Shown: in pieces, positions 5,769 through 41,801 of the stretch
Layout of the letters: every line of letters starts with the position of its first letter
How positions within the stretch are numbered: the stretch's first letter is position 1
Assembly (NCBI GenBank): GCA_964480705.1
Contig: CAYZPC010000001.1
Span: forward strand, 31,297-95,296
Reading direction: 5' to 3'
Length of the DNA stretch: 64,000 nt
Source of the DNA: an uncultured archaeon
GTDB taxonomy: Archaea > Iainarchaeota > Iainarchaeia > Iainarchaeales > VGJJ01
The notes under the pieces: generated by a model
The model's database searches: none
Told to the model about the DNA's origin: nothing
What the model saw: only the letters and a program-made list of their open reading frames with translations
Made by a program: the position numbers and the translations under genes

Positions 5769-7093
5769 TTTCCTCGCCCCCCAGATGACATGGCCAAAAA
5801 CAATCCCCACACTTGCGTGGAGAGGATGAATATCCAGTACACGGACAAAAATAAAATGACTCCTACCATGGAGAGATTTTTTGTTTTGACTCCCGCGGCG
5901 CGTGTTCCCATCGCTGCCATCAGGATGGTTAATCCTACTATTAACATGTACAAGAACAAGTCACTGTTCAAGTAAAGGGGAGGCAATACAATCGTCTCAA
6001 ATGCAATCGTAGAATAGGACGTGAACGAGCGATACACATCCGCGAGGCTTTCCGAAAACATTCTTGCGGCGAGTAGTAGAAAGAAAATCGCCCCCGTATC
6101 TAATATCACGCGCAGGGGGAAAAATACGCGGAAGAAAAACTTTTGCGGTGAAAACATTTCGTTGCGATACTTGAAAATAGTCTGCCACCCTCCGCGTGCC
6201 CATCGTTGGCGTTGGCGAAAAAGTTTGCGCAGCGTATCAGGCACATCGGTAAACACTTGCGCGTCCGCTTCTAACACGACGTGATATCCTGCTTTGTGCA
6301 GGGCGAAGGTGATTTCCATATCCTCCGTGATGTTGTGCACGTCATACCCGCCTATTTTTTCAAAGGCGCTGCGGCGATACACGGAAAAGGGTCCCGGCGT
6401 CACGTATAGCGAGTCGAGTGTATTCAACACGGAGTTTTTCAATCCAAATTCTAAAAAGTATTCCACTTCTTGAATGCGTGCGAGTAAGTTGTTTCGGTTG
6501 TGCACGCGCACAATCGTGGTGACTGCTCCTACGTTTTCATTGCGATAAAAATGGGGGATTAGTTTTTCGAGCGTGTCCACATTGGGAAAACTATCTCCAT
6601 CAATCGCGGCGATGAATTCTCCTTTCGTTGAGCGTGCGGCCTTGTTGAGCGAGGCGGCTTTTCCAATATTTTTTTCATTATGAATGACTTTAATTTTTCC
6701 CTTGAATTCATTCAAAATTTCTCGTGTTTGATCCGTGCTTCCATCGTTTATCACAGTAATATCCCACTTTCCGTTGTAATGCATCGCCGTCACGTGTTGT
6801 AAACACGTGCGCAGGCTCTCTCCTCTATTCCATGCGGGGATGATTACACTCACGCTCGGCCACTTGGTGAGAAGTGGCACGTGAACGGTTTGTTTTTCCA
6901 AAAAGGCTAGGAGGAAGAAGCATCCCATGTACAAAAAAAACACCGAGAAGGAGACCATGATGATAAATAAAGGTAAATTGAAAACCGCCCATCCGGCCGC
7001 GCCGATGAAGAGTAAATATGCAAGTGCCCCTGCTACTCGTGCCCGGTCGGATGGCATGTTCTTGTTGAGCGTGGGTCCTTCAGAGCTGTCCAT
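5762..7093 (-). CDS. Family 2 glycosyltransferase, integral membrane, processive type (QxxRW)
   Basis: VSVIIPAWN, DGSTD, AIDGDS and QRQRWARG motifs; N- and C-terminal TM helices. Confidence 0.85.
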   Translation of the reverse strand: MDSSEGPTLNKNMPSDRARVAGALAYLLFIGAAGWAVFNLPLFIIMVSFSVFFLYMGCFFLLAFLEKQTVHVPLLTKWPSVSVIIPAWNRGESLRTCLQHVTAMHYNGKWDITVINDGSTDQTREILNEFKGKIKVIHNEKNIGKAASLNKAARSTKGEFIAAIDGDSFPNVDTLEKLIPHFYRNENVGAVTTIVRVHNRNNLLARIQEVEYFLEFGLKNSVLNTLDSLYVTPGPFSVYRRSAFEKIGGYDVHNITEDMEITFALHKAGYHVVLEADAQVFTDVPDTLRKLFRQRQRWARGGWQTIFKYRNEMFSPQKFFFRVFFPLRVILDTGAIFFLLLAARMFSESLADVYRSFTSYSTIAFETIVLPPLYLNSDLFLYMLIVGLTILMAAMGTRAAGVKTKNLSMVGVILFLSVYWIFILSTQVWGLFLAMSSGGRGKW

Positions 7094-8632: not shown

Positions 8633-9103
8633 ATGCCCTCCAAAGAGTTGAAAGAACGCGAAGAAACCCTGCAAGCGTTACTAAAGAAAATTGACGCGGA
8701 CATTGATGTTTTCACCAAGCGTTTGGAAAAACTCCACGTGAAACACGATGAGCTCACGGGCGTAGTATTAGATGCGGGTCTGGAACCCGTTCCCATTTCC
8801 TTTCAAGCGGGGAAGAATGCGGATGTGATTAGTGAGTTAGAATCCCATGTTCTTGAACTCAACAAGCTCAAAAATTTGCTGAGTATGAAACTCCGCCGCA
8901 TTCTTCAAGAGGAAGATTTGTTGGAACATTTGCAAACCGAGTATGGAAAAAATGTCACATTCAAGCGCAACACCAAAGGTGGAGTGGAGTTGCAAGTGCA
9001 GGATAAGGATGCGGAAGAAGCATTTGCCCAATTGCAAGTGAGCAAGAAAAAATTAGATGAGTTGAGAGAGCAAATTCACGAGTTGGGCGATCCCGAAGAA
9101 TAA
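8633..9103 (+). CDS. Coiled-coil protein (possibly prefoldin-like)
   Basis: AGGAG RBS 5 nt upstream; two long heptad regions separated by a short beta-hairpin-like segment. Confidence 0.45.
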   Translation: MPSKELKEREETLQALLKKIDADIDVFTKRLEKLHVKHDELTGVVLDAGLEPVPISFQAGKNADVISELESHVLELNKLKNLLSMKLRRILQEEDLLEHLQTEYGKNVTFKRNTKGGVELQVQDKDAEEAFAQLQVSKKKLDELREQIHELGDPEE

Positions 9104-9185
9104 GTTGCTATTTTCTCCCCGTAAGCCTTTTTCCTTTGTATTCATACGTGTCTTTTAAAGGAAATTCGCACGTTTATCTTAGTAT

Positions 9186-9848
9186 ATGGCCGATGAAATA
9201 ACGCTCGATAAGGAAGTTTTCAAAGCGCTTGCGGGAGACACACGTGTTTCCGTGTTGAAATCATTAATGCAGCGCCGAAAAACACAAAGTGAATTGGCGA
9301 AAGAATTGAACCTCGCCGCGCCCACGATTAAAGATCATTTGGATATTTTGCAGAAAGCCCAACTCGTGAGAGAAGTGGATGATGGTCACAAATGGAAATA
9401 CATTGAATTAACCGTCAAAGGAAAATCACTCTTACAGCCAACTGACAAGCGTATCATGGTCTTGTTAGGAACCAGTTTGTTTGGTGTTGCAGCGGCCGGT
9501 TTTTTGGCGTATTCAAAATTCTCCTCTCTTGCATTCCAGAATTTTTCCACTTTTGCCGCCGATAACACGGCGGTGATGAAAGCCGGTTCTCTTCCCGCGG
9601 ATGCGATGATTGCGAGTGGGAGCGAATTAACCCAAGCGGCTCCCCTTGTTTCAGGAGAAGGTGCCAATGCTTCTATTGAAGTTGGTCGCACCGCGTTGGA
9701 AGCGGCCGCGCCGAGTGTTTCTCCTCTTGCCACGGATGTGGCGGCGCAAACATTCGCCTGGATTCCCACTCCTGAATTGGCAGTATTAGTAATTTGTTTA
9801 GTCGTTTTTGGTTTAGCGTGTGGAATGTGGATCAAACAGACATACTAA
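9186..9848 (+). CDS. ArsR-family HTH transcriptional regulator with C-terminal membrane anchor
   Basis: N-terminal ALAGDTRVSVLKSL..QSELAKELNLAAPTIKDHLDIL wHTH; C-terminal hydrophobic helix. Confidence 0.75.
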   Translation: MADEITLDKEVFKALAGDTRVSVLKSLMQRRKTQSELAKELNLAAPTIKDHLDILQKAQLVREVDDGHKWKYIELTVKGKSLLQPTDKRIMVLLGTSLFGVAAAGFLAYSKFSSLAFQNFSTFAADNTAVMKAGSLPADAMIASGSELTQAAPLVSGEGANASIEVGRTALEAAAPSVSPLATDVAAQTFAWIPTPELAVLVICLVVFGLACGMWIKQTY

Positions 9849-14266: not shown

Positions 14267-17170
14267 TCACGCGACACTCATTCCAATTTCTATTTTTTCT
14301 TCGCGGATGGTTTCCGTGCTGAGGTGGGCGTGTTTTGTCGTGAAATTGGATACAAATACTAGTTTTTGCGCGCGCACTTTCGCTGCGATTTCCGCGTGGT
14401 GTGCTTTGAGCATGTGGGTGAGTTTTTCGCTCGCGCGAATTTCAACTACCACGTGTTGTTCCGGGTTCAGCACGGCTTTTTTTCTCAAATCTTGAATTTT
14501 TCTTGAAATTTCGCGTGCAAATCCTTCTCCTTCGAGTGCAGCATCCATCGCTGTGTCCAATGATACAATCGTTTCCGGGTCCTCTTCCAATGTGTGTGCG
14601 GCGGCGAATACTTTTTCATTCACGTGAATATTTTTCACATTCAACTGTGTCTTAATCATGTTTTCCAATGTTTGAATCGCGTGTTTTCGCTCTTCACTTT
14701 TCGTGTGCACATTCAGCGCGCGCAGGGGCCATCGCACGTTTATTTTTTCTTTCTCGCGCAAAAACAATCCGGCTGTGATGACTCCTTGTGCGTGGGTCAT
14801 GGCGTTTTCCAGTGTCACATTTCGCGGCGCGGGTTCCGGCCAAGGGGTCGTGTGAATGGAACCTGCTTCGCCGTTTACGACTTCGTGCATGATTTCACTC
14901 ACGTAGGGTGCAATGGGCGCCAATAATTTGGCGAGCGTGCTAAATGTTTGATAAAACACATACGCCACGGCTTCATCTCCTTGTTTGGCGCGTTCACGCA
15001 CGAGCTTGATGTACGTGCGCGAAAAATCCTCATTTACAAACGTTAGCAGGGCTTGCGTGCACGCGTTGAACGCGTACGCGTCATATCCTTCCGTCACGGT
15101 ATCGCGGCACGTGGCTAATCGAGACAAAATCCATTCGTCTTCGGTTTCAAGTTGGGGTGTGCTCACGAGCATTCCTTTTTCTAAATACGGTTGCGCAAAC
15201 AGGAGGCTGTTCCACAGCACATTCAACAAGGGTCGCACGCTCTCATTCATGGATGCTATTCCAATTCTCTTTTCGCTCCCCGGGGGAGTGAGGCACATTT
15301 GCAGTCGCACCGCGTCTACTCCATGAGCGTCAAACGCGGCCGCGGGAACAATGACGTTTCCTTTGGACTTGGACATTTTTTCTCCCTTTTCATCAACCAG
15401 GAGTCCGCCGCAAATGACTGTTTTGTAGGGTGATTTTCCAAACAGGAGTGCGCTGATGACGAGGAGCGTGTAGAACCATCCTCTCGTTTGGTCTTGTGCT
15501 TCGGCAATAAAATCATACGGGAAAAATTTCTCAAACAATTCTTTGTTTTCAAACGGGTAATGTAATTGGGCAAAGGGTGCGCTTCCCGAGTCGTACCAGC
15601 AATCTATTACATCGCTCTCGCGCTTCATTTCGCTATTGCATTTTTCACACGTAAACGTAATTTTGTCGAGGGTGGGTTTGTGTAAATCAAATTCTCCTTT
15701 TGGTGTGTTTTTTCCGCGTGCGCGTATTTCTTCTACGCTTCCCGCGGCGTGCAGGTGTCCGCACTCGTTGCGCGTGCAGCGCCATATGTTGAGCGGTGTT
15801 CCCCAATATCGTTTGCGGGACAATCCCCAGTCTTTGGCGTTGGCAATCCATTCTCCAAATCGCCCTTCTTTCACATGGTCGGGTGTCCACTTTATGTTTT
15901 GGTTAAGCTTTTCCAAAAGCTTACGATGCTGTGACACGTTGATGAACCAGGATTTCATGGCATAATACATCAGGGGGGTGTTGCATCTCCAGCAGTGCGG
16001 GTATTCGTGTTCAAATTTATCTGTTTTGAACAGGAGATTTTTTTCCTGCAGGAATGCAATCAATTCTTTCTCGGCATGTCTGTGGTTTTTTCCCGCCCAT
16101 TCTCCCATTTCGGCTTTGAACAATCCGTCTTCTCCCACGTGTTGTACAAACGCGAGGCCATTTTCTTTGCCGGCTTGGTAATCATCTTCTCCAAACCCGG
16201 GGGCGATGTGCACAATGCCCGTTCCGTCTTGCACGGTGACAAATTCTCCTGAAATAACATGGAATGATTTTCCATTAAGTTTAGCGGTTGAGCGCGTGTA
16301 CGTATCAAATGGCGGCACGTATTCTATTCCCACGAGTTTTTCTCCGCGCAGGGTTTCCTTAATGTGTGTTCCTTCCGGGAAGTGTTTGCTCACGAGCACG
16401 TGTGCGAGAACGTATTCCATTCCCTCACTCTCAACGATGGCGTAATCCACTTCCTTGTTTACCGCGAGTGAAATGTTTCCCGGAAGTGTCCACGGAGTGG
16501 TCGTCCATGCCAAGAAGGCGCGTTTGGGATTTTTTTTCCAAATGAATTTTACCGTTGCCGTGGTGTCTTTCACGGTCTTGTATCCCAATGCCACTTCGTG
16601 CGAGGAAAGAGATGTTTGGCAGCGCGGGCAAAAGGGGGTGGTGCGGTGTCCTTCGTACAAGTATCCGCGTTCAAATAATTGTTTGAGTGACCACCACACG
16701 GATTCAATGTAGTCATTTGACATGGTCACGTAGGGTTTTTCTAAATCCACCCAGTATGCCATTCGCTCCGTCATGACATCCCATTCCTGGATGAATGTGT
16801 TCACATCTTTTCGGCATTCTTCGACAAATTTTTCGGTTCCAAAATGTTCAATTTCGCGCTTGTTTTTCAAACCAAGTTTTTTTTCCACTTGCACTTCCAC
16901 CGGCAGCCCGTGCGTGTCCCATCCTGCTTTTCGTGGCACGGTTTTTCCGCGCATGAATTGGTATCTGTTTACAACGTCTTTGAATACGCGCATTTCCACG
17001 TGATGCAACGCTGGAGGAGCATTCGCAGTGGGCGGTCCTTCTAAGAATGAAAAAATGGGTTTGTGGGGGTTGTATCCCACCGTCTTTTCGATGATTTTAT
17101 TTTTTTTCCATTTCTCGAGCGCGCGCTGTTCGAGTAGTTTGAAATCGTACGAGCGGGGGAGAGATTGCAT
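14267..17170 (-). CDS. ileS: Isoleucyl-tRNA synthetase (archaeal/eukaryotic type)
   Basis: GWDTHGLPVE, KMSKSKGN, class I editing-domain layout, 967 aa. Confidence 0.9.
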   Translation of the reverse strand: MQSLPRSYDFKLLEQRALEKWKKNKIIEKTVGYNPHKPIFSFLEGPPTANAPPALHHVEMRVFKDVVNRYQFMRGKTVPRKAGWDTHGLPVEVQVEKKLGLKNKREIEHFGTEKFVEECRKDVNTFIQEWDVMTERMAYWVDLEKPYVTMSNDYIESVWWSLKQLFERGYLYEGHRTTPFCPRCQTSLSSHEVALGYKTVKDTTATVKFIWKKNPKRAFLAWTTTPWTLPGNISLAVNKEVDYAIVESEGMEYVLAHVLVSKHFPEGTHIKETLRGEKLVGIEYVPPFDTYTRSTAKLNGKSFHVISGEFVTVQDGTGIVHIAPGFGEDDYQAGKENGLAFVQHVGEDGLFKAEMGEWAGKNHRHAEKELIAFLQEKNLLFKTDKFEHEYPHCWRCNTPLMYYAMKSWFINVSQHRKLLEKLNQNIKWTPDHVKEGRFGEWIANAKDWGLSRKRYWGTPLNIWRCTRNECGHLHAAGSVEEIRARGKNTPKGEFDLHKPTLDKITFTCEKCNSEMKRESDVIDCWYDSGSAPFAQLHYPFENKELFEKFFPYDFIAEAQDQTRGWFYTLLVISALLFGKSPYKTVICGGLLVDEKGEKMSKSKGNVIVPAAAFDAHGVDAVRLQMCLTPPGSEKRIGIASMNESVRPLLNVLWNSLLFAQPYLEKGMLVSTPQLETEDEWILSRLATCRDTVTEGYDAYAFNACTQALLTFVNEDFSRTYIKLVRERAKQGDEAVAYVFYQTFSTLAKLLAPIAPYVSEIMHEVVNGEAGSIHTTPWPEPAPRNVTLENAMTHAQGVITAGLFLREKEKINVRWPLRALNVHTKSEERKHAIQTLENMIKTQLNVKNIHVNEKVFAAAHTLEEDPETIVSLDTAMDAALEGEGFAREISRKIQDLRKKAVLNPEQHVVVEIRASEKLTHMLKAHHAEIAAKVRAQKLVFVSNFTTKHAHLSTETIREEKIEIGMSVA

Positions 17171-18397: not shown

Positions 18398-18469
18398 TGG
18401 ACCCGGGAGGGGTTGAACCTCCGACCTTCGCTGTATAAGAACGCTGCTCTACCACTGAGCTACGGGTCC
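18398..18469 (-). tRNA. tRNA, probable tRNA-Ile (anticodon TAT) with G27.A43 mismatch
   Basis: RC: GGACCCG-TA-GCTC-AGTGGTA-GAGC-A-GCGTT-CTTATAC-AGCGA-AGGTC-GGAGG-TTCAACC-CCTCC-CGGGTCC-A. Confidence 0.6.
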
Positions 18470-18883: not shown

Positions 18884-20521
18884 TTAGTCCATTCCCATTC
18901 CGCCCATGTCCGGCATTCCGCCTTTGGGGCCTCGTCCGGACGATGTGGCTGCGATGATGTCGTCAATGCGCAACAGCATTTGAGCGACTTCGGATGCGGA
19001 TGATAATGCTTGCGTCTTGATGCGCAAGGGTTCAACCACATTTAATTTTCGCATGTCGTCAATTTTGCTGTCGTGCACGTTCACACCTAAGTATTTTCCT
19101 TCTTTTCCTTTGTGTCGCGCGCGGAGTCCAACGAGTGTGTCGATGGGGTCCATTCCGGCTGTTTCCGCAAGCGTTTTGGGTATGATTTCCAACGCTTCTG
19201 CGAATGCGTTAATGGCGAGTTGTTCGCGTCCGCCCACATTTTTGGCGTATTCTTGCAACTGCATTGCGATTTCAATTTCGGTGCTTCCTCCACCCGTGAC
19301 GGTTTTTCCGTCTTTGATGGATGATGTCACGGCGCCCAACGCATCGGTGAGTGCGCGTTCGGCTTCGTCAATCACGTGTTGTGTTCCGCCGCGGACTAAG
19401 ATGGTAACGGCCTTAGGATTCTTGCATCCTTCGATGAACACCATGCTGTCTCCCGCAATTTTCTTTTCGGAAACCATTTTGGCGTGTCCCAAATCGTCTT
19501 TCGTCATGTCTTGCAGGCGTGAAATAATTTTTCCGCCGGTGCTTTTGGCCATTTTTTGTAAATCGCTCTGCTTGACTCTTCGCACGGCAAGAATTCCTGC
19601 TTTGGCGAGGAAGTGTTGGGCTAAATCGTCAATTCCTTTTTGGCAGATGACGACATTGGCTCCGCTCTTCTGAATGTTTTCCACCATTTTTTTGAGCATT
19701 CCTTCTTCTTGGTCTAAGAATGCTTGCAGCTGGTCTGGTGATGTGATTTCAATTTTGGCATCCGTTTCGGTTTCTTTGATTTCCAACGCGGCGTCAACCA
19801 ATGCAATTTTTGCATTCTCAACATGACGTGGCATTCCGGTGTGAACAATTTCTTTGTCTAAGACAATTCCCTTGATCAATTCAGAATCGTGCAAGCTGGC
19901 GCCTGTTTTCTTTTCAATTTTGACGTGGTCTAAGTCGATGGAATATTTTCCGTCTTCTTTTTCGGCAACCGTTTGAACGGCTTCCACAACCAAGTCAGAC
20001 AATCGTGCTTCGGCTTCGGCTGATTTTCCTGTCATGGATGTCATGGCGATTTTGCGCAGTGTTTTAGTGTCGTCAAATGTTAAGTTGTCGGCAATGTCTG
20101 CCGCAATGTCTTTGGCTTTCTTTTCAGCCATGCGGTATCCGTTGATAATAATGCTCGGATGAATTTCATCGTCGAGTAAAGATTCGGCTTTCTGCAAGAG
20201 TCCGCCGGCGAGGATAACAGCTGATGTGGTTCCGTCTCCGACTTCGCGGTCTTGTGTTTTGGCAACTTCCACCATCATTTTTCCGGCAGGGTGGTCGATT
20301 TGCATTTCTCCTAAGATGGTTGCACCGTCGTTTGAAATGGTGACATCGCCCATGTCGTCCACGAGCATTTTGTCCATTCCTTTGGGTCCGAGCGTGGATT
20401 TCACGGCATTGGCGACTGCTTTGGCAATCAGGATGTTAATTCGTTGAGCGTCTCGTCCGAGTACTCTTCGAGAACCTTCGGGCAGGAACATCATTTGTTG
20501 GTTCATTTTATTTTCGGTCAT
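18884..20521 (-). CDS. thsA: Thermosome subunit (group II chaperonin)
   Basis: [15 protein letters not shown], full-length CCT/thermosome architecture ending in [11 protein letters not shown]. Confidence 0.92.
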
Positions 20522-20716
20522 TTTTTGATTCCTCCTAAAAATAGAATCTTTTATCGTTAAACGTCGTTTTTCGGGTTGTTTTTGGCCTGTTTTTGGGGTT
20601 TTAGTCCATTTTTAGCCAAGTAATTCATTATTTAGATGGATGTAACTGTTTAAAAATCGAACTTTTTCGATGGATATGGCTGTTGAAACATAACTTTTGG
20701 CGGGGTTGTTTTGATA

Positions 20717-21577
20717 CTAGAAGGGGGCTGCGCGCGGGTCTGCCCATCCTTGCGGGCGGGGGTAGAAATCGTACACGTTCACCCGCGCGTCATTGGTTTT
20801 GCGTTTGCGCACGAAAAACTCGAGCAGCGTGCCTCGTTCGGCAGGCACGTGTCGCTGGCGCGCGTGCCACTCTGTTAGCATCTGCAGGGTCGCCGCGTAT
20901 TTTTTTCCTCCCAATCGGTTGCGATACCGTGTGAGTATGTCCTTCGCAGCCGTGATGCTGGGGATTTGCGCTAAAATAAATGAAAAAAATTCCGGATCAT
21001 TTGTGATGAATGGTTTGTTGATATAATCCAACACATCTCGCGTGAATCGATTGAATCGACCGCTTTTATTGTATTGAAAAAATAAGTTACCAACCATTCG
21101 CGCCACATTTTTTCCGAGTGCAGATACTCGTTTCCATTGCCGCAGTCTCTCCACGCGGGATGATTCGCGCGCGATAGAATCAAAGTGTTGCACTACTAGC
21201 GTTGCTTCGCTCGGCACACTTATTCGCAGGGGTTTTTGTACCATGTATGTTTTGCGCCATTGTTTCTGACGCACGCGGCCCCCTGGCGTGAGCATGGAAT
21301 AACGCTGAGCGGCAGTTTTCTTTCCCTGGCGTTTTCCCATTTCATCCAACACTTCCATGATGGCTTGTTTGACGCGCGCAAACTCCTGCGCTGTTATTTT
21401 GCGTGTGATGCGTGCTGTCGCCGAATTTTTTCCCAAACCAATCGTAAGTACGTGTTCGCTTCTGCGTCCTGTTTTTTTCTGAATGGTGACGCCAGGCTCG
21501 CCGTGTCTGCGCGAATGTGCAATCGCATTTGTGTGGATATTAATCATCACGCGCTTAGCGCGTGCGCGGGGTTTCAT
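20717..21577 (-). CDS. Hypothetical highly basic protein (286 aa) with GC-rich 3' end
   Basis: R/K-rich ORF; local GC clearly above the surrounding sequence (20700..20900). Confidence 0.5.
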   Translation of the reverse strand: MKPRARAKRVMINIHTNAIAHSRRHGEPGVTIQKKTGRRSEHVLTIGLGKNSATARITRKITAQEFARVKQAIMEVLDEMGKRQGKKTAAQRYSMLTPGGRVRQKQWRKTYMVQKPLRISVPSEATLVVQHFDSIARESSRVERLRQWKRVSALGKNVARMVGNLFFQYNKSGRFNRFTRDVLDYINKPFITNDPEFFSFILAQIPSITAAKDILTRYRNRLGGKKYAATLQMLTEWHARQRHVPAERGTLLEFFVRKRKTNDARVNVYDFYPRPQGWADPRAAPF

Positions 21578-21614
21578 CCTAGCTATTATTATCTGTTTGT
21601 TATTAATTTATTCT

Positions 21615-22220
21615 ATGGACTTTCGCCCCGAGCTTTCAACTAGACAAACGGATTGGTTGCACAATCATTCGTATGAGCTTATTTCCTTCATCGCTCGCGG
21701 AATGAACGCGGGGGTGTGGCTCGTTTCTAAGAATGGAAAAAAGTTTGCCGCCAAAATCGCTCATGCTAAATCGCGCCGCGTGCGAATGAGTGCAAAAGAA
21801 GTGCTGCATTTGCACGTGGCGAACGTGTTGAGCGTGGGTCCAAAAATAGTGGAAAGCGATGCGTCTGAAAATATTTTGATTATGGAATATGTCAATGGCA
21901 TTCCCCTCGCGGATTGGTTGAATAAAAATAATTCAAAAAAATTATTGAAAAAACTCCTCACTAAATTATTTGCACAGGCACGCACGCTCGACAACGGAAA
22001 ACTCGACCACGGCCAGTTGGGGGGAAAGCTGCACAACATTTTAGTGGATGCGAAAAGCAATCCTCATATTATTGATTTTGAAAAAGCTTCGTATGTGCGC
22101 GCGGCCAAGAATGTGAATGCGCTCACGCACACTTTGTTGAGCGGTCACACGGGTTTCTCCGTGCGCGTGCGTGAAATGCTCTCGGAAGAGGATGTGCGCG
22201 CGTTGCGTTTCCCACGATGA
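21615..22220 (+). CDS. Bud32/RIO-like small kinase-fold protein with substituted catalytic motifs (HGQ, DFE); possible pseudokinase
   Basis: ILIMEYVNGIPL hinge; LDHGQLGGKLHNILVD catalytic loop; IIDFEKAS in place of DFG. Confidence 0.6.
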   Translation: MDFRPELSTRQTDWLHNHSYELISFIARGMNAGVWLVSKNGKKFAAKIAHAKSRRVRMSAKEVLHLHVANVLSVGPKIVESDASENILIMEYVNGIPLADWLNKNNSKKLLKKLLTKLFAQARTLDNGKLDHGQLGGKLHNILVDAKSNPHIIDFEKASYVRAAKNVNALTHTLLSGHTGFSVRVREMLSEEDVRALRFPR

Positions 22221-22783
22221 GTGGTGTCATGTTTATATTGTCCATTTTTTTTTGTTCCCGAATGAATGGCAATTTTGGATACAAAACACACAATTTATTT
22301 TTGCGCGATTGGATGTTTTATGTCACCGTGCAGGCGGTTATTTTCATTAAAGTCGTGGCGTTTTACACGATGTTTGGTCACGGCATTTCCTATTTTGGCC
22401 AGCCGCTCATGTTGAATGTTCCTTTCATGGCCGTTCCTGTGTTTGGAAACTTGTATCATGTCTGGGAGTATTTTTTCCACCAGATCATGCACATTTTCAT
22501 TTTATTCTGGACACTCTTGCTGGCGAAGCATATTGTGAAAGTCGATTGGTTGGCGTTAGGAAAACTTTTTTTCATCGCAGTCGTGTTGCATAACATTGGA
22601 TACTGGTTTACGTTTTCGCATCCTTCGCTGATATTTTCTCTCCGCGATTTTGCCACTGATTTTGTTGCATTATTTTTGTTTTTTGCATTGTTTAGATTAG
22701 GATTCAAACTCGTTCCGCAATCCAAGAAGTGGACGATTCCTCTGTTTGATGAAGTGAAAAGCAGCGGTGCAAAAAATAAATGA
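22217..22783 (+). CDS. Polytopic membrane protein, His-rich TM helices
   Basis: 188 aa, 5-6 TM helices; overlaps the kinase-like gene stop by 4 nt. Confidence 0.5.
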   Translation: MSGVMFILSIFFCSRMNGNFGYKTHNLFLRDWMFYVTVQAVIFIKVVAFYTMFGHGISYFGQPLMLNVPFMAVPVFGNLYHVWEYFFHQIMHIFILFWTLLLAKHIVKVDWLALGKLFFIAVVLHNIGYWFTFSHPSLIFSLRDFATDFVALFLFFALFRLGFKLVPQSKKWTIPLFDEVKSSGAKNK

Positions 22784-22825: not shown

Positions 22826-23218
22826 TCAAAGAGTGAATTTTCGGTCAACTTCTCGAATCAGCACATCACATTGTGATTTGACGGCTTCGAGTTGTTTGAT
22901 GATGTGTTCTTTTTCTTGTTCCACATCTTGAATTTTTTCGTAGGGTTCAATGGCTTCTTTCAACATTCCATAATCCACATACGTGTAGGGGTGTGCGTTC
23001 ATTTTTTTGGCAATGCGTTCGACCATTTTTCCTAACCAGATGTTCATTTCATCTTTCACTTGTCCCTTGATTTGTTTTCCATCATCAAGGTATTGTCGCA
23101 TCATGTTAGTAACCGTAGCGCGGGGAAAGGGGAGTTTGCTTTCTTCCATGGTTCCTTCTTCATCCGTTTCAGCGACAGGTGTTTCCTGTTGAACGTCCAT
23201 TTTTTCTTCGTCAGCCAT
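22826..23218 (-). CDS. Histone-fold protein (archaeal histone/NF-Y-like) with acidic N-terminal extension
   Basis: LPFPRATVTNMMRQYL..QIKGQVKDEMNIWLGKMVERIAKKM resembles a histone-fold helix-strand-helix. Confidence 0.5.
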   Translation of the reverse strand: MADEEKMDVQQETPVAETDEEGTMEESKLPFPRATVTNMMRQYLDDGKQIKGQVKDEMNIWLGKMVERIAKKMNAHPYTYVDYGMLKEAIEPYEKIQDVEQEKEHIIKQLEAVKSQCDVLIREVDRKFTL

Positions 23219-23333
23219 TGAATGTTCCTCCCATTCTATGTACGTAATACACGCCAAAAGCGGTTTTAAACCCTTCCCGAATGAGGCGCAAAGCAAGGTT
23301 TTTTATGCGCAAAAAAGGTCGTTTGAGTTGATT

Positions 23334-26300
23334 ATGCGCTGGTTTATTTTTGGTTTGATTTTGGTGAGTTTTTCCTCGCTTGCCTGGGCGCAAGTACTGG
23401 GTGGTGAACCCGATTTTGGTTCGGCTCCTGCCAACACGACCATTAATTCTAGTCCGGCTCCCATTGGGGGTTTTCTCTCTTTTTACTCCTCATGTCAAGA
23501 TGGCGTGTTCATGCGCAGCGTCGTGTGCGATTCTCCTTCGTGTGATGTGTCTTCTCCTTCCCTCTGTTCTTCCACTTTTTCTTCTACCGCAAGTAAATCG
23601 TGCGCCGCTCCCACAACTGTTTCAGATTGGGGGTATCATTTTCTCGTGAATTCAGCGTGCTGCAATGCGCAAAATAATTGTACGCTTCAGCAAACCACCG
23701 ATCCCTGGTTGGTGGGAGTGGAACCTTTTCCGGTGAGTACACAGATGGTGGATGTTTCCGGAATGGATCCCCGCGGGAATAAGTTGGCTCGTCGTTCGTA
23801 TTCGAGTTGGGTTTCGGTCTTCAACACATCTTCGGATGCAAAAATTTCCACCACCACTGACGCTGGTCTCACGTGGTCGAGTCCTCTTTCCATCAAATCA
23901 CTTTTTTCTCAAGCTCAATTGCCATTGGGTGTGAGTTATTCGTCTGTGCGCGTCGTTAATCCTGCGCTTGCGGTTGGAAATAATTCCGTTGAACTTGTTT
24001 TTGAAGTGGTGGACACTTCTGGAAAAAGCAACGTGTATTATTCTCACTGCGTCTCTTCTGCTTGTTCGAATGCAGCTGCGTGGTCGCTGGCTGTTCCCGT
24101 TCTCGATCCCATTGTCACGGAAACAAATCCCGGTGCGGCCGATTCAACATGGATGTATTCACTTGGTTCCCCTAAAATTGGAATCACTTCCTCTTCCATC
24201 GTGCATGTTATTTTTGATGACTCTCAAACGAATCCTTCGCTTCGCATTCAGGGAATTTTTCACCGGTATTGTTCTCTCGTTGACGGGTGTGACAAAGTAT
24301 CTGCGTGGAATGCTTCCACGAATGGGACGGATATTTTAGGGGGAGTCAATAACGGATACCCCCGCTCGCCTCACCTTTCCATTAGTTCAAAGGGCGTGTT
24401 TGCCATATGGATGGATTATTCTTCTTCCGGAAACCCGTCTTCAAATAGCATCTTTGTCTCCCTCTACGCAATTCCAACCAACACGTGGCTTTCTCCCGTT
24501 TCGGTTGGGAGCGCGAGTAGTTTTTCATTCCCCTGGATTTCGGCCGCTGGTAATCGCGCCGGAATTTCCGCGCTTTCTGGAAGCACCGTGCGCGTGTGGA
24601 ATTGTGATTCTTCCTGCATGAGTTCTCCTTCAACTCCAACGGCGTGGTCGGATGTTTCCTCCACTTTTTCTCCATTCAACACACTCACTTCCCTCTCCGA
24701 AGTTGCCATCGCAATTTCTCCTCTTGACTCGAGTGAATCCGTGCTGTTGGCTGCTGGAAACTTGGCGGGAAACAGACAATTATTTGGAATGTACTCTCGC
24801 GCGGGGGGCATCACGACAACTCTTCGCCGCATTTCCAACACTCCCACTTCATTCACTTTTACAGGATTGTCTGATGTGAGTGGAAATTTTTTGTGGAGCA
24901 GTCAACCTTTTTTGCAGTGGGCCGGCGCCACTCCAACAAGTGGTTCGGTTTATTCATCTAATGTTTTTTCATCAAACAATGCATTTCCATCCATCACTAT
25001 TACCGCGCCCACCACTCCCGTCACGTGGCAGTCAGCAAGTTCTTCCGCGTACTCTCAAACAATCACCTTCACCGCGCAGGATAATGATATTGAAGATGAA
25101 TTGTATGCGTCCATTTACTTTGGCACATCGCCCAACACCACCACTTATTTGCTTCGTGACCGCGTGGATTTGAAAACACTTCAAGGGACACAGAGCACTG
25201 ACACGTGTGCATCCGGTTCTTTTACGTCTCCCCGCACGTGCGTGTTGAACTTGCCCCTTTTCGATCCCGCCACGGGCTTGTTAGCTCCGAATGGAAATTA
25301 TTATTTGGTTGCTGTTCTCGCGGATTCAAAATCAGGGAGTGATGTTTTTTCCACTCCCAATCAAGTGACTTTTTCTCTCCCTTCCGGGACGATTTCCATT
25401 GCCGCACCCACTGCTGGCTCGTCGTGGTCGGGTCCGGGAACGAAACAGTTGGCGGTGGATGTGAATAATCCCCTCTTCTCTCAATTGTTTTCACTCACCC
25501 TTTCTGGCAATTCTCCGAGTGGTTCATTCATGTTTCCCTCGTATCCTGTTTCCTCGTACGGGAGCACTATTCCTCCGTGCGTTAAAGTGGGAAATAATTA
25601 TTCATGCGCGTATCCTATTCTGCCCTCTTCTTCTATTTCAGAAGGAGTGTACGCGTTGTCTCTCGACTCTAGCGTTGATGGCTTGCCCGGCCCCACGGCG
25701 AGCGTGAGTAATATTACGATTGATTTCATTGCCCCGCGCGTGGTCTCGGCGCAGCCGCAAGGCACGCTCACGAGTCCCCCTTCGTCTGTTTCATTTGCCC
25801 TGCAGGATTTTTCTCCCATTGCAACTGTGCCATCCATTCTCATCAATGGTCAGACAGCCACTCCTACTTGTTCATTTGGAGCACAGCCCGTCACGTGTTC
25901 CGCGCCCTTCCCTTCATCCATAACCACGGGCCCGGTCGTGGTTCAAGTAACCGCCTCGGATGCGTTTGGAAATAGTTCTCCGAGTAATTTTTCATTTACC
26001 ATCGATGGTGGAACCACTGTTCCTCCAGGGCCTGGCGGAGAAGGCGGAGGCGGTGGCGGAGGTGGCGGTGGCGGTGGGGGCGGCGGTCCAGGTAAAGTAA
26101 TTCCGCGAGTAGAAGATGTAATCACGCGCGACAGTGAGGGAAATGTTCTCGTGAATGGTACTCCAGTCGTGATTCCCAAAACAATTGTGGAAACTGTGGG
26201 AACATTTTCCAATAATGTGGTCACAGCCACGAGTAATTTGGTTGATGTGGTAGGTCCGAGTGCGCATGCCATATTTTTGGGGTTGTGCGTGATTGCCGGA

Positions 26301-26597
26301 CTGGCATCCGATGTGGTGTTTCGCCGTGTCTTTTCAAAAATTCGCGCGGACACCTATAAGCAGCGCGAGCGTTTGGTCCGAGCCCTCCTCGCGGGAATAT
26401 TTTTCATTATCCCTCTTGCCATTGGCTGGTCTTTTTCACTCGTGGCGGGATTTATTTTCACCGTAATGGAGATTGTGGGGTTTGTCGCTGCCGCATATGC
26501 GATCAAAATTCTCCAATACTATGACACGTTCGGCTACAAGGCCATTCAAGGGGTGGCGTCTGCGATTACTCCCCCGCCCCGACCTCCCTCCATGTGA
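23334..26597 (+). CDS. Giant S/T-rich surface protein with signal peptide, poly-Gly linker and C-terminal TM helices
   Basis: MRWFIFGLILVSFSSLAWA signal; over 1000 aa Ser/Thr/Cys-rich; G18 tract; three C-terminal hydrophobic helices. Confidence 0.7.
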   Translation: MRWFIFGLILVSFSSLAWAQVLGGEPDFGSAPANTTINSSPAPIGGFLSFYSSCQDGVFMRSVVCDSPSCDVSSPSLCSSTFSSTASKSCAAPTTVSDWGYHFLVNSACCNAQNNCTLQQTTDPWLVGVEPFPVSTQMVDVSGMDPRGNKLARRSYSSWVSVFNTSSDAKISTTTDAGLTWSSPLSIKSLFSQAQLPLGVSYSSVRVVNPALAVGNNSVELVFEVVDTSGKSNVYYSHCVSSACSNAAAWSLAVPVLDPIVTETNPGAADSTWMYSLGSPKIGITSSSIVHVIFDDSQTNPSLRIQGIFHRYCSLVDGCDKVSAWNASTNGTDILGGVNNGYPRSPHLSISSKGVFAIWMDYSSSGNPSSNSIFVSLYAIPTNTWLSPVSVGSASSFSFPWISAAGNRAGISALSGSTVRVWNCDSSCMSSPSTPTAWSDVSSTFSPFNTLTSLSEVAIAISPLDSSESVLLAAGNLAGNRQLFGMYSRAGGITTTLRRISNTPTSFTFTGLSDVSGNFLWSSQPFLQWAGATPTSGSVYSSNVFSSNNAFPSITITAPTTPVTWQSASSSAYSQTITFTAQDNDIEDELYASIYFGTSPNTTTYLLRDRVDLKTLQGTQSTDTCASGSFTSPRTCVLNLPLFDPATGLLAPNGNYYLVAVLADSKSGSDVFSTPNQVTFSLPSGTISIAAPTAGSSWSGPGTKQLAVDVNNPLFSQLFSLTLSGNSPSGSFMFPSYPVSSYGSTIPPCVKVGNNYSCAYPILPSSSISEGVYALSLDSSVDGLPGPTASVSNITIDFIAPRVVSAQPQGTLTSPPSSVSFALQDFSPIATVPSILINGQTATPTCSFGAQPVTCSAPFPSSITTGPVVVQVTASDAFGNSSPSNFSFTIDGGTTVPPGPGGEGGGGGGGGGGGGGGGPGKVIPRVEDVITRDSEGNVLVNGTPVVIPKTIVETVGTFSNNVVTATSNLVDVVGPSAHAIFLGLCVIAGLASDVVFRRVFSKIRADTYKQRERLVRALLAGIFFIIPLAIGWSFSLVAGFIFTVMEIVGFVAAAYAIKILQYYDTFGYKAIQGVASAITPPPRPPSM
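26031..26090 (+). repeat. (GGN)n simple repeat encoding an 18-20 residue poly-glycine tract
   Basis: ggcggagaaggcggaggcggtggcggaggtggcggtggcggtgggggcggcggt. Confidence 0.8.
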
Positions 26598-40830: not shown

Positions 40831-40952
40831 AATTTACTTGTGAAACGTAGAGATAAAATCCTATGTTTTATTTTTTTCGGCGGTTTACCTTCCGCCCGTT
40901 TTTATTCAGTTTATTCGTGTTCGTTTCGCACTCACTTTTGGAGGTCGTTTCT

Positions 40953-41801
40953 ATGGATCAAAAAGATGCGTTGGTTGTTTTTCAAGATACAAAAATTAGG
41001 AGAATATTACATAATAATGAATGGTTTTTTTCAGTCGTAGACGTGGTTGGTGCTTTGACAGATAGTCCAACGCCCCGACAATACTGGGGCAAAGTAAAGG
41101 ATAGGGAGTTCAACGAGATTCAGTTGTCCCCAATTTGGGTACAACTGAAATTACCTTCTTCGGACGGCAAACTATACGAAACCGACTGCGCCAACACCCA
41201 AAACATGTTCCGCATCATCCAATCCATCCCTTCTCCCAAAGCCGAGCCCTTCAAACAATGGTTAGCCAAAGTAGGCTATGAGCGCGTGAAAGAAATTGAA
41301 AACCCTGAATTAGCCCAAGCGCGCATGGTCGAAACCTACCGCGCGAAAGGATATTCCAATGAGTGGATTGAAAGACGTCTGCGTGGCATTGCCGTGCGGG
41401 ACGATTTGACGAATGAGTGGAAAAAACGCGATGTGAAAGAGGGAGTGGAGTTTGCCATCCTCACGGCGGAAATTTCTTCCGCCACATTCGGAATGACTCC
41501 AACCGAATACAAGGATTTCAAGGGGTTGAAAAAAGAAAACTTGCGCGACCACATGAATGATTTGGAGTTAATTTTTACCATGCTCGGAGAAGCATCCACT
41601 GCACACGTTGCGCGTGGAAAAGACGCGCAGGGTTTTGTTGAGAACCAGCAGGCCGCCGTGGTGGGTGGAACGATTGCAGGGAATGCGCGAAAGGAATTGG
41701 AAAATAAAAGTGGAGAAAAGATTTCCACATCTGAAAATTATCTTTCTGTTCCTGAGAGTCAGAAGCGTTTGGAGCGCTCGGCTAAAAAACACATTGAGTG
41801 A
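40953..41801 (+). CDS. Bro-N / DinD-like (DNA-damage-inducible protein D family) protein
   Basis: N-terminus IRRILHNNEWFFSVVDVVGAL fits Bro-N; C-terminal NEWKKRDVKEGVEFAILTAEISSATFGMTPTEYKDFKGL block. Confidence 0.55.
   Translation: MDQKDALVVFQDTKIRRILHNNEWFFSVVDVVGALTDSPTPRQYWGKVKDREFNEIQLSPIWVQLKLPSSDGKLYETDCANTQNMFRIIQSIPSPKAEPFKQWLAKVGYERVKEIENPELAQARMVETYRAKGYSNEWIERRLRGIAVRDDLTNEWKKRDVKEGVEFAILTAEISSATFGMTPTEYKDFKGLKKENLRDHMNDLELIFTMLGEASTAHVARGKDAQGFVENQQAAVVGGTIAGNARKELENKSGEKISTSENYLSVPESQKRLERSAKKHIE

Follow-up and report, generated by a model that had tools for sequence, protein, structure and literature searches.

A probable ArkI-family RNA kinase and a lineage-restricted basic accessory gene beside the thermosome of an Iainarchaeota genome

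We analysed a stretch of 64,000 nucleotides (the window) from an uncultured archaeon of the Iainarchaeota (assembly GCA_964480705.1, contig CAYZPC010000001.1, positions 31,297 to 95,296), examining its roughly 55 open reading frames (ORFs) for domain families, and focus here on a small kinase gene and on the divergently oriented gene for a strongly basic protein beside it. The kinase, from the Iainarchaeota (Diapherotrites, DPANN), very likely belongs to the ArkI/Ark1 family of RNA kinases, and its HGQ and DFE motifs are the normal active site of that family rather than signs of decay. The best explanation of the locus as a whole, which we consider fairly likely to be correct, is an ArkI-family kinase acting on U47 of tRNA, accompanied by a selected, lineage-restricted accessory gene that encodes the basic protein. 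The two genes are as follows:

21615 to 22220, plus strand: very likely ArkI-family (Ark1, COG2112/AQ578) small RNA kinase, 201 amino acids (aa), isoelectric point (pI) 10.0, with DHGQ at residues 131-134, the GGK lysine at 138, N141 and DFE at 154-156.
20717 to 21577, minus strand: strongly basic orphan protein ('PF-terminal') of 286 aa and pI 11.4, whose accessory gene fills the slot between thermosome and kinase.

The kinase ORF extends from 21483 to 22220 on the plus strand and contains an internal ATG at 21615, which we take as the real start because the homologues begin at the same MDF/MxF. The catalytic loop reads LD-H132-G133-Q134-LGGKLHN141 and the metal loop IID154-F155-E156-KA. A phmmer alignment to AMPK places Q134 precisely at the position of the catalytic Asp (HRD) and D154 at that of the DFG Asp. 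A first-pass annotation of the window had described a Bud32/RIO-like minimal kinase fold carrying HGQ and DFE substitutions, and both descriptions hold: the Asp nearest to Q134 is D131, three residues before it, rather than one position away.

The T. kodakarensis ArkI (TkArkI; TK2051, PDB 7VNX; COG2112, AQ578) is the top match of the kinase by sequence, by profile and by structure. A phmmer search against all PDB sequences returned TkArkI first with an E-value of 8.9e-7, the next match lying at 0.05, and a profile built from 24 homologues scored TkArkI at 65 bits (4.9e-17) and a Bud32-type kinase at 34.7 bits (1e-7). The AlphaFold model of the kinase (predicted local distance difference test, pLDDT, 92.4; predicted template-modelling score, pTM, 0.87) retrieved 7VNX as the best Foldseek match (E 9e-12, template-modelling score 0.75), with human PRPK at 0.68, and a second solved Ark1, from Geoglobus acetivorans, was also matched. 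Among the Pfam models, Pkinase reached 30.8 bits, just below its gathering score, and RIO1 reached 26.9 bits against a gathering score of 22, the latter being a partial match over residues 60-161 of the kinase. The NCBIfam Bud32 models scored 16-36 bits against cut-offs of 125-372 (36.1 versus 372 for the best one and 29 versus 125 for TIGR03724). ArkI stands ahead of Bud32 and RIO in all four comparisons. Bud32/PRPK proteins of the KEOPS complex have HGD and DFG and are paired or fused with Kae1, whereas the window kinase has HGQ and DFE, scores far below the Bud32 cut-offs and has no KEOPS gene in the window. No Kae1/TsaD, Bud32, Cgi121 or Pcc1 domain was detected among the ORFs of the window, in agreement with the earlier remark that the kinase does not neighbour Kae1, Pcc1 or Cgi121, and the syntenic loci of relatives likewise hold no linkage or fusion to Kae1, Cgi121 or Pcc1. 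RIO1 and RIO2 differ from the window kinase by their catalytic Asp, in place of which it has Gln, and by the RIO-specific N-terminal extension, which is missing from this 201-residue protein.

The active-site residues agree with this assignment. In TkArkI, the HRD triplet is replaced by HGQ and DFG by DFE (Ohira et al. 2022, PMC9095486), and the H130A, Q132A, K137A and D149A substitutions cause severe or complete loss of activity (PMC9095486); the counterparts of these four residues in the window kinase are H132, Q134, K138 and D154. H132-G133-Q134 of the window kinase align to the DHGQ of TkArkI, and D154-F155-E156-K157-A158, which are invariant among the homologues, align to its IDFEKA; G137-K138, contributing the lysine of GGK, are invariant as well, the gap that separates them from the Gln being one residue shorter than in TkArkI. 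In the ATP site, K32/G33 of the TkArkI P-loop, K51 and E65 correspond to R28 (a Lys in roughly half of the homologues), G29, K47 and E62, so that the Lys/Glu pair is kept, and N166 aligns to TkArkI N160. Across the 24 homologues, H132, Q134, K138, D154, G29, K47, E62, N141 and N166 are invariant. The two proteins further share a subdomain IX Asn, a basic surface charge and a minimal two-lobe fold of about 200 residues that resembles eukaryotic protein kinases without an activation segment, and the window kinase has the size (about 200-220 aa) and lacks subdomains VIII and X, as is characteristic of ArkI. Hence HGQ and DFE, which look like substitutions, are the signature that defines an RNA kinase already characterised as active, the aligned residues of which are invariant here. 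The first-pass suggestion of a pseudokinase or of altered chemistry accordingly divides: altered chemistry stands, in that the substrate would be an RNA 2'-OH and not a protein, as in ArkI, and the pseudokinase part falls, since K47, E62, N141 and D154 (the VAIK Lys, the alphaC Glu, the catalytic-loop Asn and the DFG Asp, residues that pseudokinases lose) are invariant and HGQ/DFE is the published ArkI active-site signature (PMC9095486). The signature found again from raw sequence is that of the active site of the only known internal RNA 2'-kinase.

Homologues of the kinase come from metagenome-assembled genomes (MAGs) of Iainarchaeota/Diapherotrites, which identifies the source of the window as a DPANN archaeon, and a genome scan recovered the same kinase (DHGQL-GGK, DFEKAS) in 77 species-representative loci, nearly all of them from Iainarchaeota. 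These findings carry the ArkI family into what seems to be an entire phylum of DPANN archaea that have small genomes and are apparently mesophilic, and our literature search found no paper that links ArkI with DPANN or Iainarchaeota. Three contigs with an archaeal ArkI-like kinase (L055, L060 and L072 in our numbering of loci, which is used below) are filed under bacterial MAGs (Falkowbacteria, Chloroflexota), probably as a result of binning errors.

The gene order around the kinase is thermosome (minus strand), basic ORF (minus), spacer, kinase (plus) and polytopic membrane ORF (plus). The features named in the first-pass annotation, namely the kinase motifs, the basic divergent neighbour, the GC peak and the overlapping membrane ORF, are all present in the sequence. 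Beyond the two genes introduced above, the argument draws on the following elements:

18398 to 18469, minus strand: tRNA-Ile(UAU), identified by ARAGORN and Rfam, with the 5-nucleotide (nt) variable loop (V-loop) AGGUC (U47-C48).
18884 to 20521, minus strand: thermosome (group II chaperonin) gene, with a PF00118 annotation in the identical contig L087 and in syntenic loci; left neighbour of the slot.
20631 to 20691, no strand assigned: tandem 27-nt element TTTAGATGGATGTAACTGTTTAAAAAT / TTTCGATGGATATGGCTGTTGAAACAT, the probable thermosome promoter/operator and left edge of the variable slot.
20700 to 20900, no strand assigned: local GC peak of 0.62, covering the last 70 or so codons of the basic gene.
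21578 to 21614, no strand assigned: AT-rich divergent spacer of 37 bp, a putative shared bidirectional promoter region.
22217 to 22783, plus strand: conserved polytopic membrane protein of no known family, operon partner of the kinase, with an alternative start at 22262.

The membrane protein gene lies directly downstream of the kinase and on the same strand in 19 loci, which form one large subclade. In the window, its ORF begins inside the ATGA at the kinase stop, so that the overlap with a His-rich membrane protein reported previously is correct, and it encodes 8 His and 4-5 hydrophobic segments according to hydropathy. Some orthologues start 10-60 nt downstream, which makes ATG 22262 an alternative start. 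The motifs FHQxMH, AKH, LHN(V/I)(G/S)YWxT and (S/T)H are invariant, and no match was obtained in Pfam, NCBIfam or PHROGs; the protein could be a metal- or haem-binding membrane enzyme. Together with the family of the basic protein, this His-motif partner provides leads, as both are candidates for uncharacterised functions linked to the kinase. In one lineage only (L005), the membrane gene is followed by an extra ORF of 292 aa (5912-6790 of that locus, minus strand) with a weak match to Kdo/WaaP-type kinases.

The target of ArkI enzymes is the 2'-OH of U47, in those class I tRNAs whose V-loop is 5 nt long and which carry U47-C48 (PMC9095486, PMC10159004, PMC10622864). The tRNA-Ile(UAU) located 3 kb from the kinase carries this substrate signature in its AGGUC V-loop, the only other class I tRNA of the window, tRNA-Val(CAC), having a 4-nt loop. 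This tRNA-Ile(UAU) is conserved in related loci, and many Iainarchaeota loci keep it beside the thermosome. In most archaea, AUA is read by a modified CAU tRNA, so that a genomic UAU tRNA-Ile is noteworthy.

We propose that the kinase would use ATP to phosphorylate the 2'-OH of U47, yielding Up47, in class I tRNAs with a 5-nt variable loop and U47-C48, and that His132, Gln134 and Lys138 of the catalytic loop together with the metal-binding Asp154 of DFE would carry out the chemistry. The kinase would be co-transcribed with the conserved His-motif membrane protein. The basic gene occupies a variable slot bounded by the thermosome operator and the start codon of the kinase, with which it would share a short bidirectional promoter region, and its product may act as a non-enzymatic nucleic-acid-binding protein. 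Judging from the family, we find it somewhat likelier than the contrary that the kinase makes Up47 in vivo, our confidence being lowered by the lack of the YKR motif and by the unexplained operon with the membrane protein. ArkI has been described as a thermotolerance factor. Its occurrence in mesophiles, among them N. viennensis and M. maripaludis, is documented (PMC9095486). Its broad retention in reduced lake and groundwater genomes would support a more general role of Up47, for instance in tRNA folding or nuclease resistance.

Several observations weigh against the proposal. The kinase shares no more than 24-25% identity with TkArkI, and its C-terminus is shorter, variable across the clade and devoid of the YKR motif: the window kinase ends about 5 residues before the aligned Y200-K201-R202 (as mapped by residue counting), and the K201A substitution in this C-terminal motif severely reduces TkArkI activity (PMC9095486). 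R95 of TkArkI gives way to Met and T162 to Asn or Ser, neither position being conserved (at the T162 position, the window kinase has Asn168 and its homologues have Ser, Asn, Gly or Thr). Described arkI loci offer nothing comparable to the operon with a membrane protein, which would allow for a different substrate, and no match to a Tpt1/KptA eraser (PF01885) was found among the ORFs of the window. As for the basic protein, no homology to any nucleic-acid-binding family was found and its structural model is of low confidence (pLDDT 47). Other differences are that the extended alpha7 helix of TkArkI is not seen in the window kinase, that the catalytic loop is shifted by one residue and contains the additional canonical Asn141, that the gene shares its operon with a membrane protein gene and not with tRNA genes, and that it comes from apparently mesophilic DPANN organisms.

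A pseudokinase derived from Bud32 or RIO, or a KEOPS-independent Bud32 paralogue without catalysis, would fit the RIO1 score above the gathering value, the weak Bud32 NCBIfam matches and the replacement of the catalytic Asp by Gln. We regard this reading as highly improbable given that the Bud32 equivalog scores fall far short of their cut-offs, that the ATP- and metal-site residues K47, E62, N141 and D154 are invariant, that the ArkI family wins all four comparisons and that an enzyme with identical HGQ/DFE motifs is a proven active kinase (PMC9095486). An ArkI fold that has turned, in this clade, to another RNA position, a small molecule or a membrane-protein-linked target is also improbable, but it would account for the missing YKR tRNA-binding motif, the unconserved T162, the extra Asn141, which is not evident in the aligned TkArkI loop, and the membrane-protein operon, which is kept without exception in 19 loci. 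Sampling-site names point to what we take to be cool-water or groundwater organisms, in which stabilisation of tRNA against heat is not obviously needed, and this would favour another substrate as well. Set against these points are the core catalytic signature, which is the same as that of ArkI, the presence of a tRNA with the substrate signature, the activity of ArkI in the mesophiles N. viennensis and M. maripaludis, and the fact that DPANN genomes often have operons mixing unrelated functions.

The divergent neighbour of the kinase is a real gene under purifying selection. It encodes 286 residues, of which 58 are Lys or Arg (20%) and 21 Asp or Glu, with a pI of 11.39. Its alignment with the orthologue P0038 is gap-free over 286 codons at 69% identity, and the ratio of non-synonymous to synonymous substitution (dN/dS) relative to the L001 orthologue is about 0.14, compared with 0.15 for the kinase. 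A word-indexed search of 5.8 billion proteins returned only the protein itself and P0038, and an exhaustive hidden Markov model (HMM) search of 1.84 billion representative proteins added five true relatives with 24-49% identity and one further match, a repeat protein, which is probably spurious. All true members share the motifs DPExF...L..IPS.T.A and YDFYP and end in '...PF'. Only D181, P195, L202, P273, P285 and F286 are invariant, and such a small number of invariant residues argues against an enzyme. The protein found no match in Pfam, NCBIfam, PHROGs or PADLOC, nor in the PDB by sequence or profile; the Rep, primase, ribosomal and ribosome-biogenesis families raised in the first-pass annotation thus gained nothing from these searches, and neither a family match nor catalytic motifs of a transposase, homing endonuclease, other nuclease or recombinase were detected in it. 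The AF2 model was computed from 2 sequences, and the Foldseek matches to it (E >= 0.27) are meaningless. On the basis of its pI, the lack of a conserved catalytic set and the C-terminal 'PF', we interpret the protein as probably a non-enzymatic nucleic-acid-binding protein, in which the conserved 'PF' could serve as a docking motif.

The basic protein is a rare, lineage-restricted and dispensable accessory ORFan, and the slot that holds it, from the thermosome operator to the ATG of the kinase, is a variable site, or hotspot, for dispensable, fast-evolving basic ORFans. Members of its family are also found divergent from an ArkI-like kinase in L001, L004 and L005, with spacers of 37-51 bp and kinases only 41-45% identical to the window kinase, and another one, in L006, comes immediately after the tRNA-modification gene TYW3. 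In L002, L003, L007, L008, L012 and L013, there is no basic gene, and thermosome and kinase are direct neighbours; a detectable family member occurs in none of the 77 species-representative kinase loci, and the four carriers are scattered on the kinase tree. L001, which has the gene, and L013, which does not, encode 95%-identical kinases within flanks of about 90% nucleotide identity and differ by a clean replacement of 929 bp versus 63 bp that leaves no remnant, and L013 shares with L003 a homologous empty-site sequence that L001 lacks. Other proteins are encoded in the slot elsewhere: an unrelated basic orphan of 192 aa and pI 11 in L021 (2519-3097, minus strand), the kinase of which is 84% identical to that of L005, and, in L005, another orphan of 205 aa (8979-9596, plus strand) in addition to the basic gene. 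According to hhalign, the slot orphans of L021 (192 aa), L026 (204 aa) and L005 (205 aa) are not homologous to the basic family.

An identical basic protein is found on five contigs, as a single copy and always in the same context. Pairwise identities of basic protein and kinase are 69/74, 27/42, 26/45 and 27/48, so that the divergence of the former tracks that of the latter, which favours long residence with repeated loss, whereas the pattern in L001, L013 and L003 favours at least one gain or recombinational replacement. We dropped the idea of a recent insertion in view of the distant homologues that occupy the same slot in L004 and L005. No relatives of the family were detected in IMG/VR or JGI metagenome contigs, and no terminal inverted repeats or target-site duplications were found around the gene. 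The 37-bp spacer is identical at 33 of 37 nt between the window and L001, the flanking coding DNA being far more diverged, and it is absent from the 'empty-site' relatives; from this conservation, it may constitute a shared bidirectional promoter of the basic gene and the kinase.

The 3' region of the basic gene is markedly richer in GC than its surroundings, as originally noted, and positions 20700-20900 form the highest GC peak of the window, their value of 0.62 being reached by only 0.03% of the 200-nt windows in the 64 kb (with 150-nt windows, 0.61 at 20700-20849 and 0.59 at 20775-20924). The gene as a whole has a GC content of 0.515, compared with a gene mean of 0.462 +/- 0.027 and with 0.495 expected from its amino acids and the codon usage of the genome; about 60% of the excess stems from a composition rich in Arg, Ala, Gly and Pro. 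Over the last 86 codons, the observed value is 0.597 versus 0.526 expected (z 3.8), which reveals a local synonymous excess. The orthologues of the gene are also 1.5-9 points higher in GC than their flanks. A recent foreign origin was rejected on codon usage, as the distance in relative synonymous codon usage is not an outlier and the Arg codon choice matches that of the genome, which prefers CGC. A structured or non-coding RNA under the peak was rejected too (fold z -0.6 and -0.06 for the two strands, no Rfam or tRNA match). Composition therefore provides no good evidence of a foreign origin. The foreign origin considered in the first-pass annotation is weakly favoured by the accessory, patchy nature of the gene and disfavoured by its native codons, a GC excess that is mostly due to composition and a divergence that tracks the kinase.

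The recurrence of the divergent pairing, with its 37-51-bp spacer, in four lineages whose kinases are only 41-45% identical, the TYW3 tRNA-modification gene next to a fifth family member and the extreme basicity of the protein would all be expected of a functional partner of the kinase, for instance a tRNA-binding cofactor that replaces the missing YKR surface. We nevertheless hold such a partnership to be doubtful, as most genomes with the kinase lack the basic gene, among them sisters with 84-95% identical kinases, and unrelated orphans fill the same slot in L021 and L005; the basic protein is not an obligate cofactor because sisters with identical kinase C-termini also do without it. By analogy with free-standing accessory or homing-type genes, which likewise show clean, patchy presence and absence, a basic product and fast evolution, the gene might instead be a selfish or mobile cassette that spreads among related Iainarchaeota by recombination into the thermosome/arkI site. 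The clean presence or absence without remnants between flanks of about 90% identity, the empty site common to L013 and L003, the scatter of carriers on the kinase tree, the alternative cargo in the slot and the local GC anomaly suit a cassette, but we hold it to be just as doubtful: no nuclease, recombinase or transposase motif and no match to a nuclease or DNA-binding family was detected in the protein, terminal repeats and target duplications are absent, the gene is single-copy and in the same context on five contigs, viral relatives are missing from IMG/VR as are relatives from the JGI metagenome contigs, its codons are native, and it has diverged in step with the kinase, a pattern that vertical descent with subsequent losses would produce. 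That the PF-terminal protein represents a new kind of tRNA-modification accessory factor, or a site-specific mobile cassette targeting the 5' end of arkI, is unlikely in our view. In the former case, it might supply a tRNA-binding subunit in trans to the YKR-less Iainarchaeota ArkI and, in one lineage, to Taw3/TYW3. If either version were true, the ArkI-membrane-protein operon would point to a role of tRNA 2'-phosphorylation outside thermotolerance, in cold-water DPANN archaea. The explanation preferred here remains an ArkI-family U47 kinase beside a selected accessory gene.

The left edge of the slot is marked by the tandem pair of 27-nt repeats, which precedes the thermosome gene in 35 of the 90 Iainarchaeota loci with a repeat spacing of 34-37 nt (also in L002-L005, L008, L012-L016, L020-L022, L024, L027, L029, L070 and others). 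The pair contains the TATA-like TTTAAAA, shows stronger conservation than the coding DNA next to it and is found only once in the window. The stop codon of the basic gene is at most 25 nt from the element in the window, and 0 nt from it in L004. We interpret the element as probably a chaperonin promoter together with an operator for a heat-shock-type regulator.

The window is archaeal in content, with an isoleucyl-tRNA synthetase at 14267-17170 (minus strand) and a UMPH-1 nucleotidase besides the tRNA-Ile(UAU) and the thermosome. Downstream of the membrane gene, an acidic protein at 22826-23296 (minus strand), 127-156 aa long and syntenic, has a weak histone-fold match (CBFD_NFYB_HMF, E 0.007); the TTG start listed for this ORF probably over-extends it. 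It is followed by a Ser/Thr/Pro-rich protein of 1119 aa at 23238-26597 (plus strand), with a run of 15 Gly, C-terminal hydrophobic segments and no Pfam match, which is kept in synteny (1089-1135 aa in relatives) and is likely of surface or S-layer type. Farther along, a BRO-N domain protein is encoded at 40863-41801 (plus strand), between a HIT-family gene and a methyladenine glycosylase gene; BRO-N is a domain typical of viruses and mobile elements.

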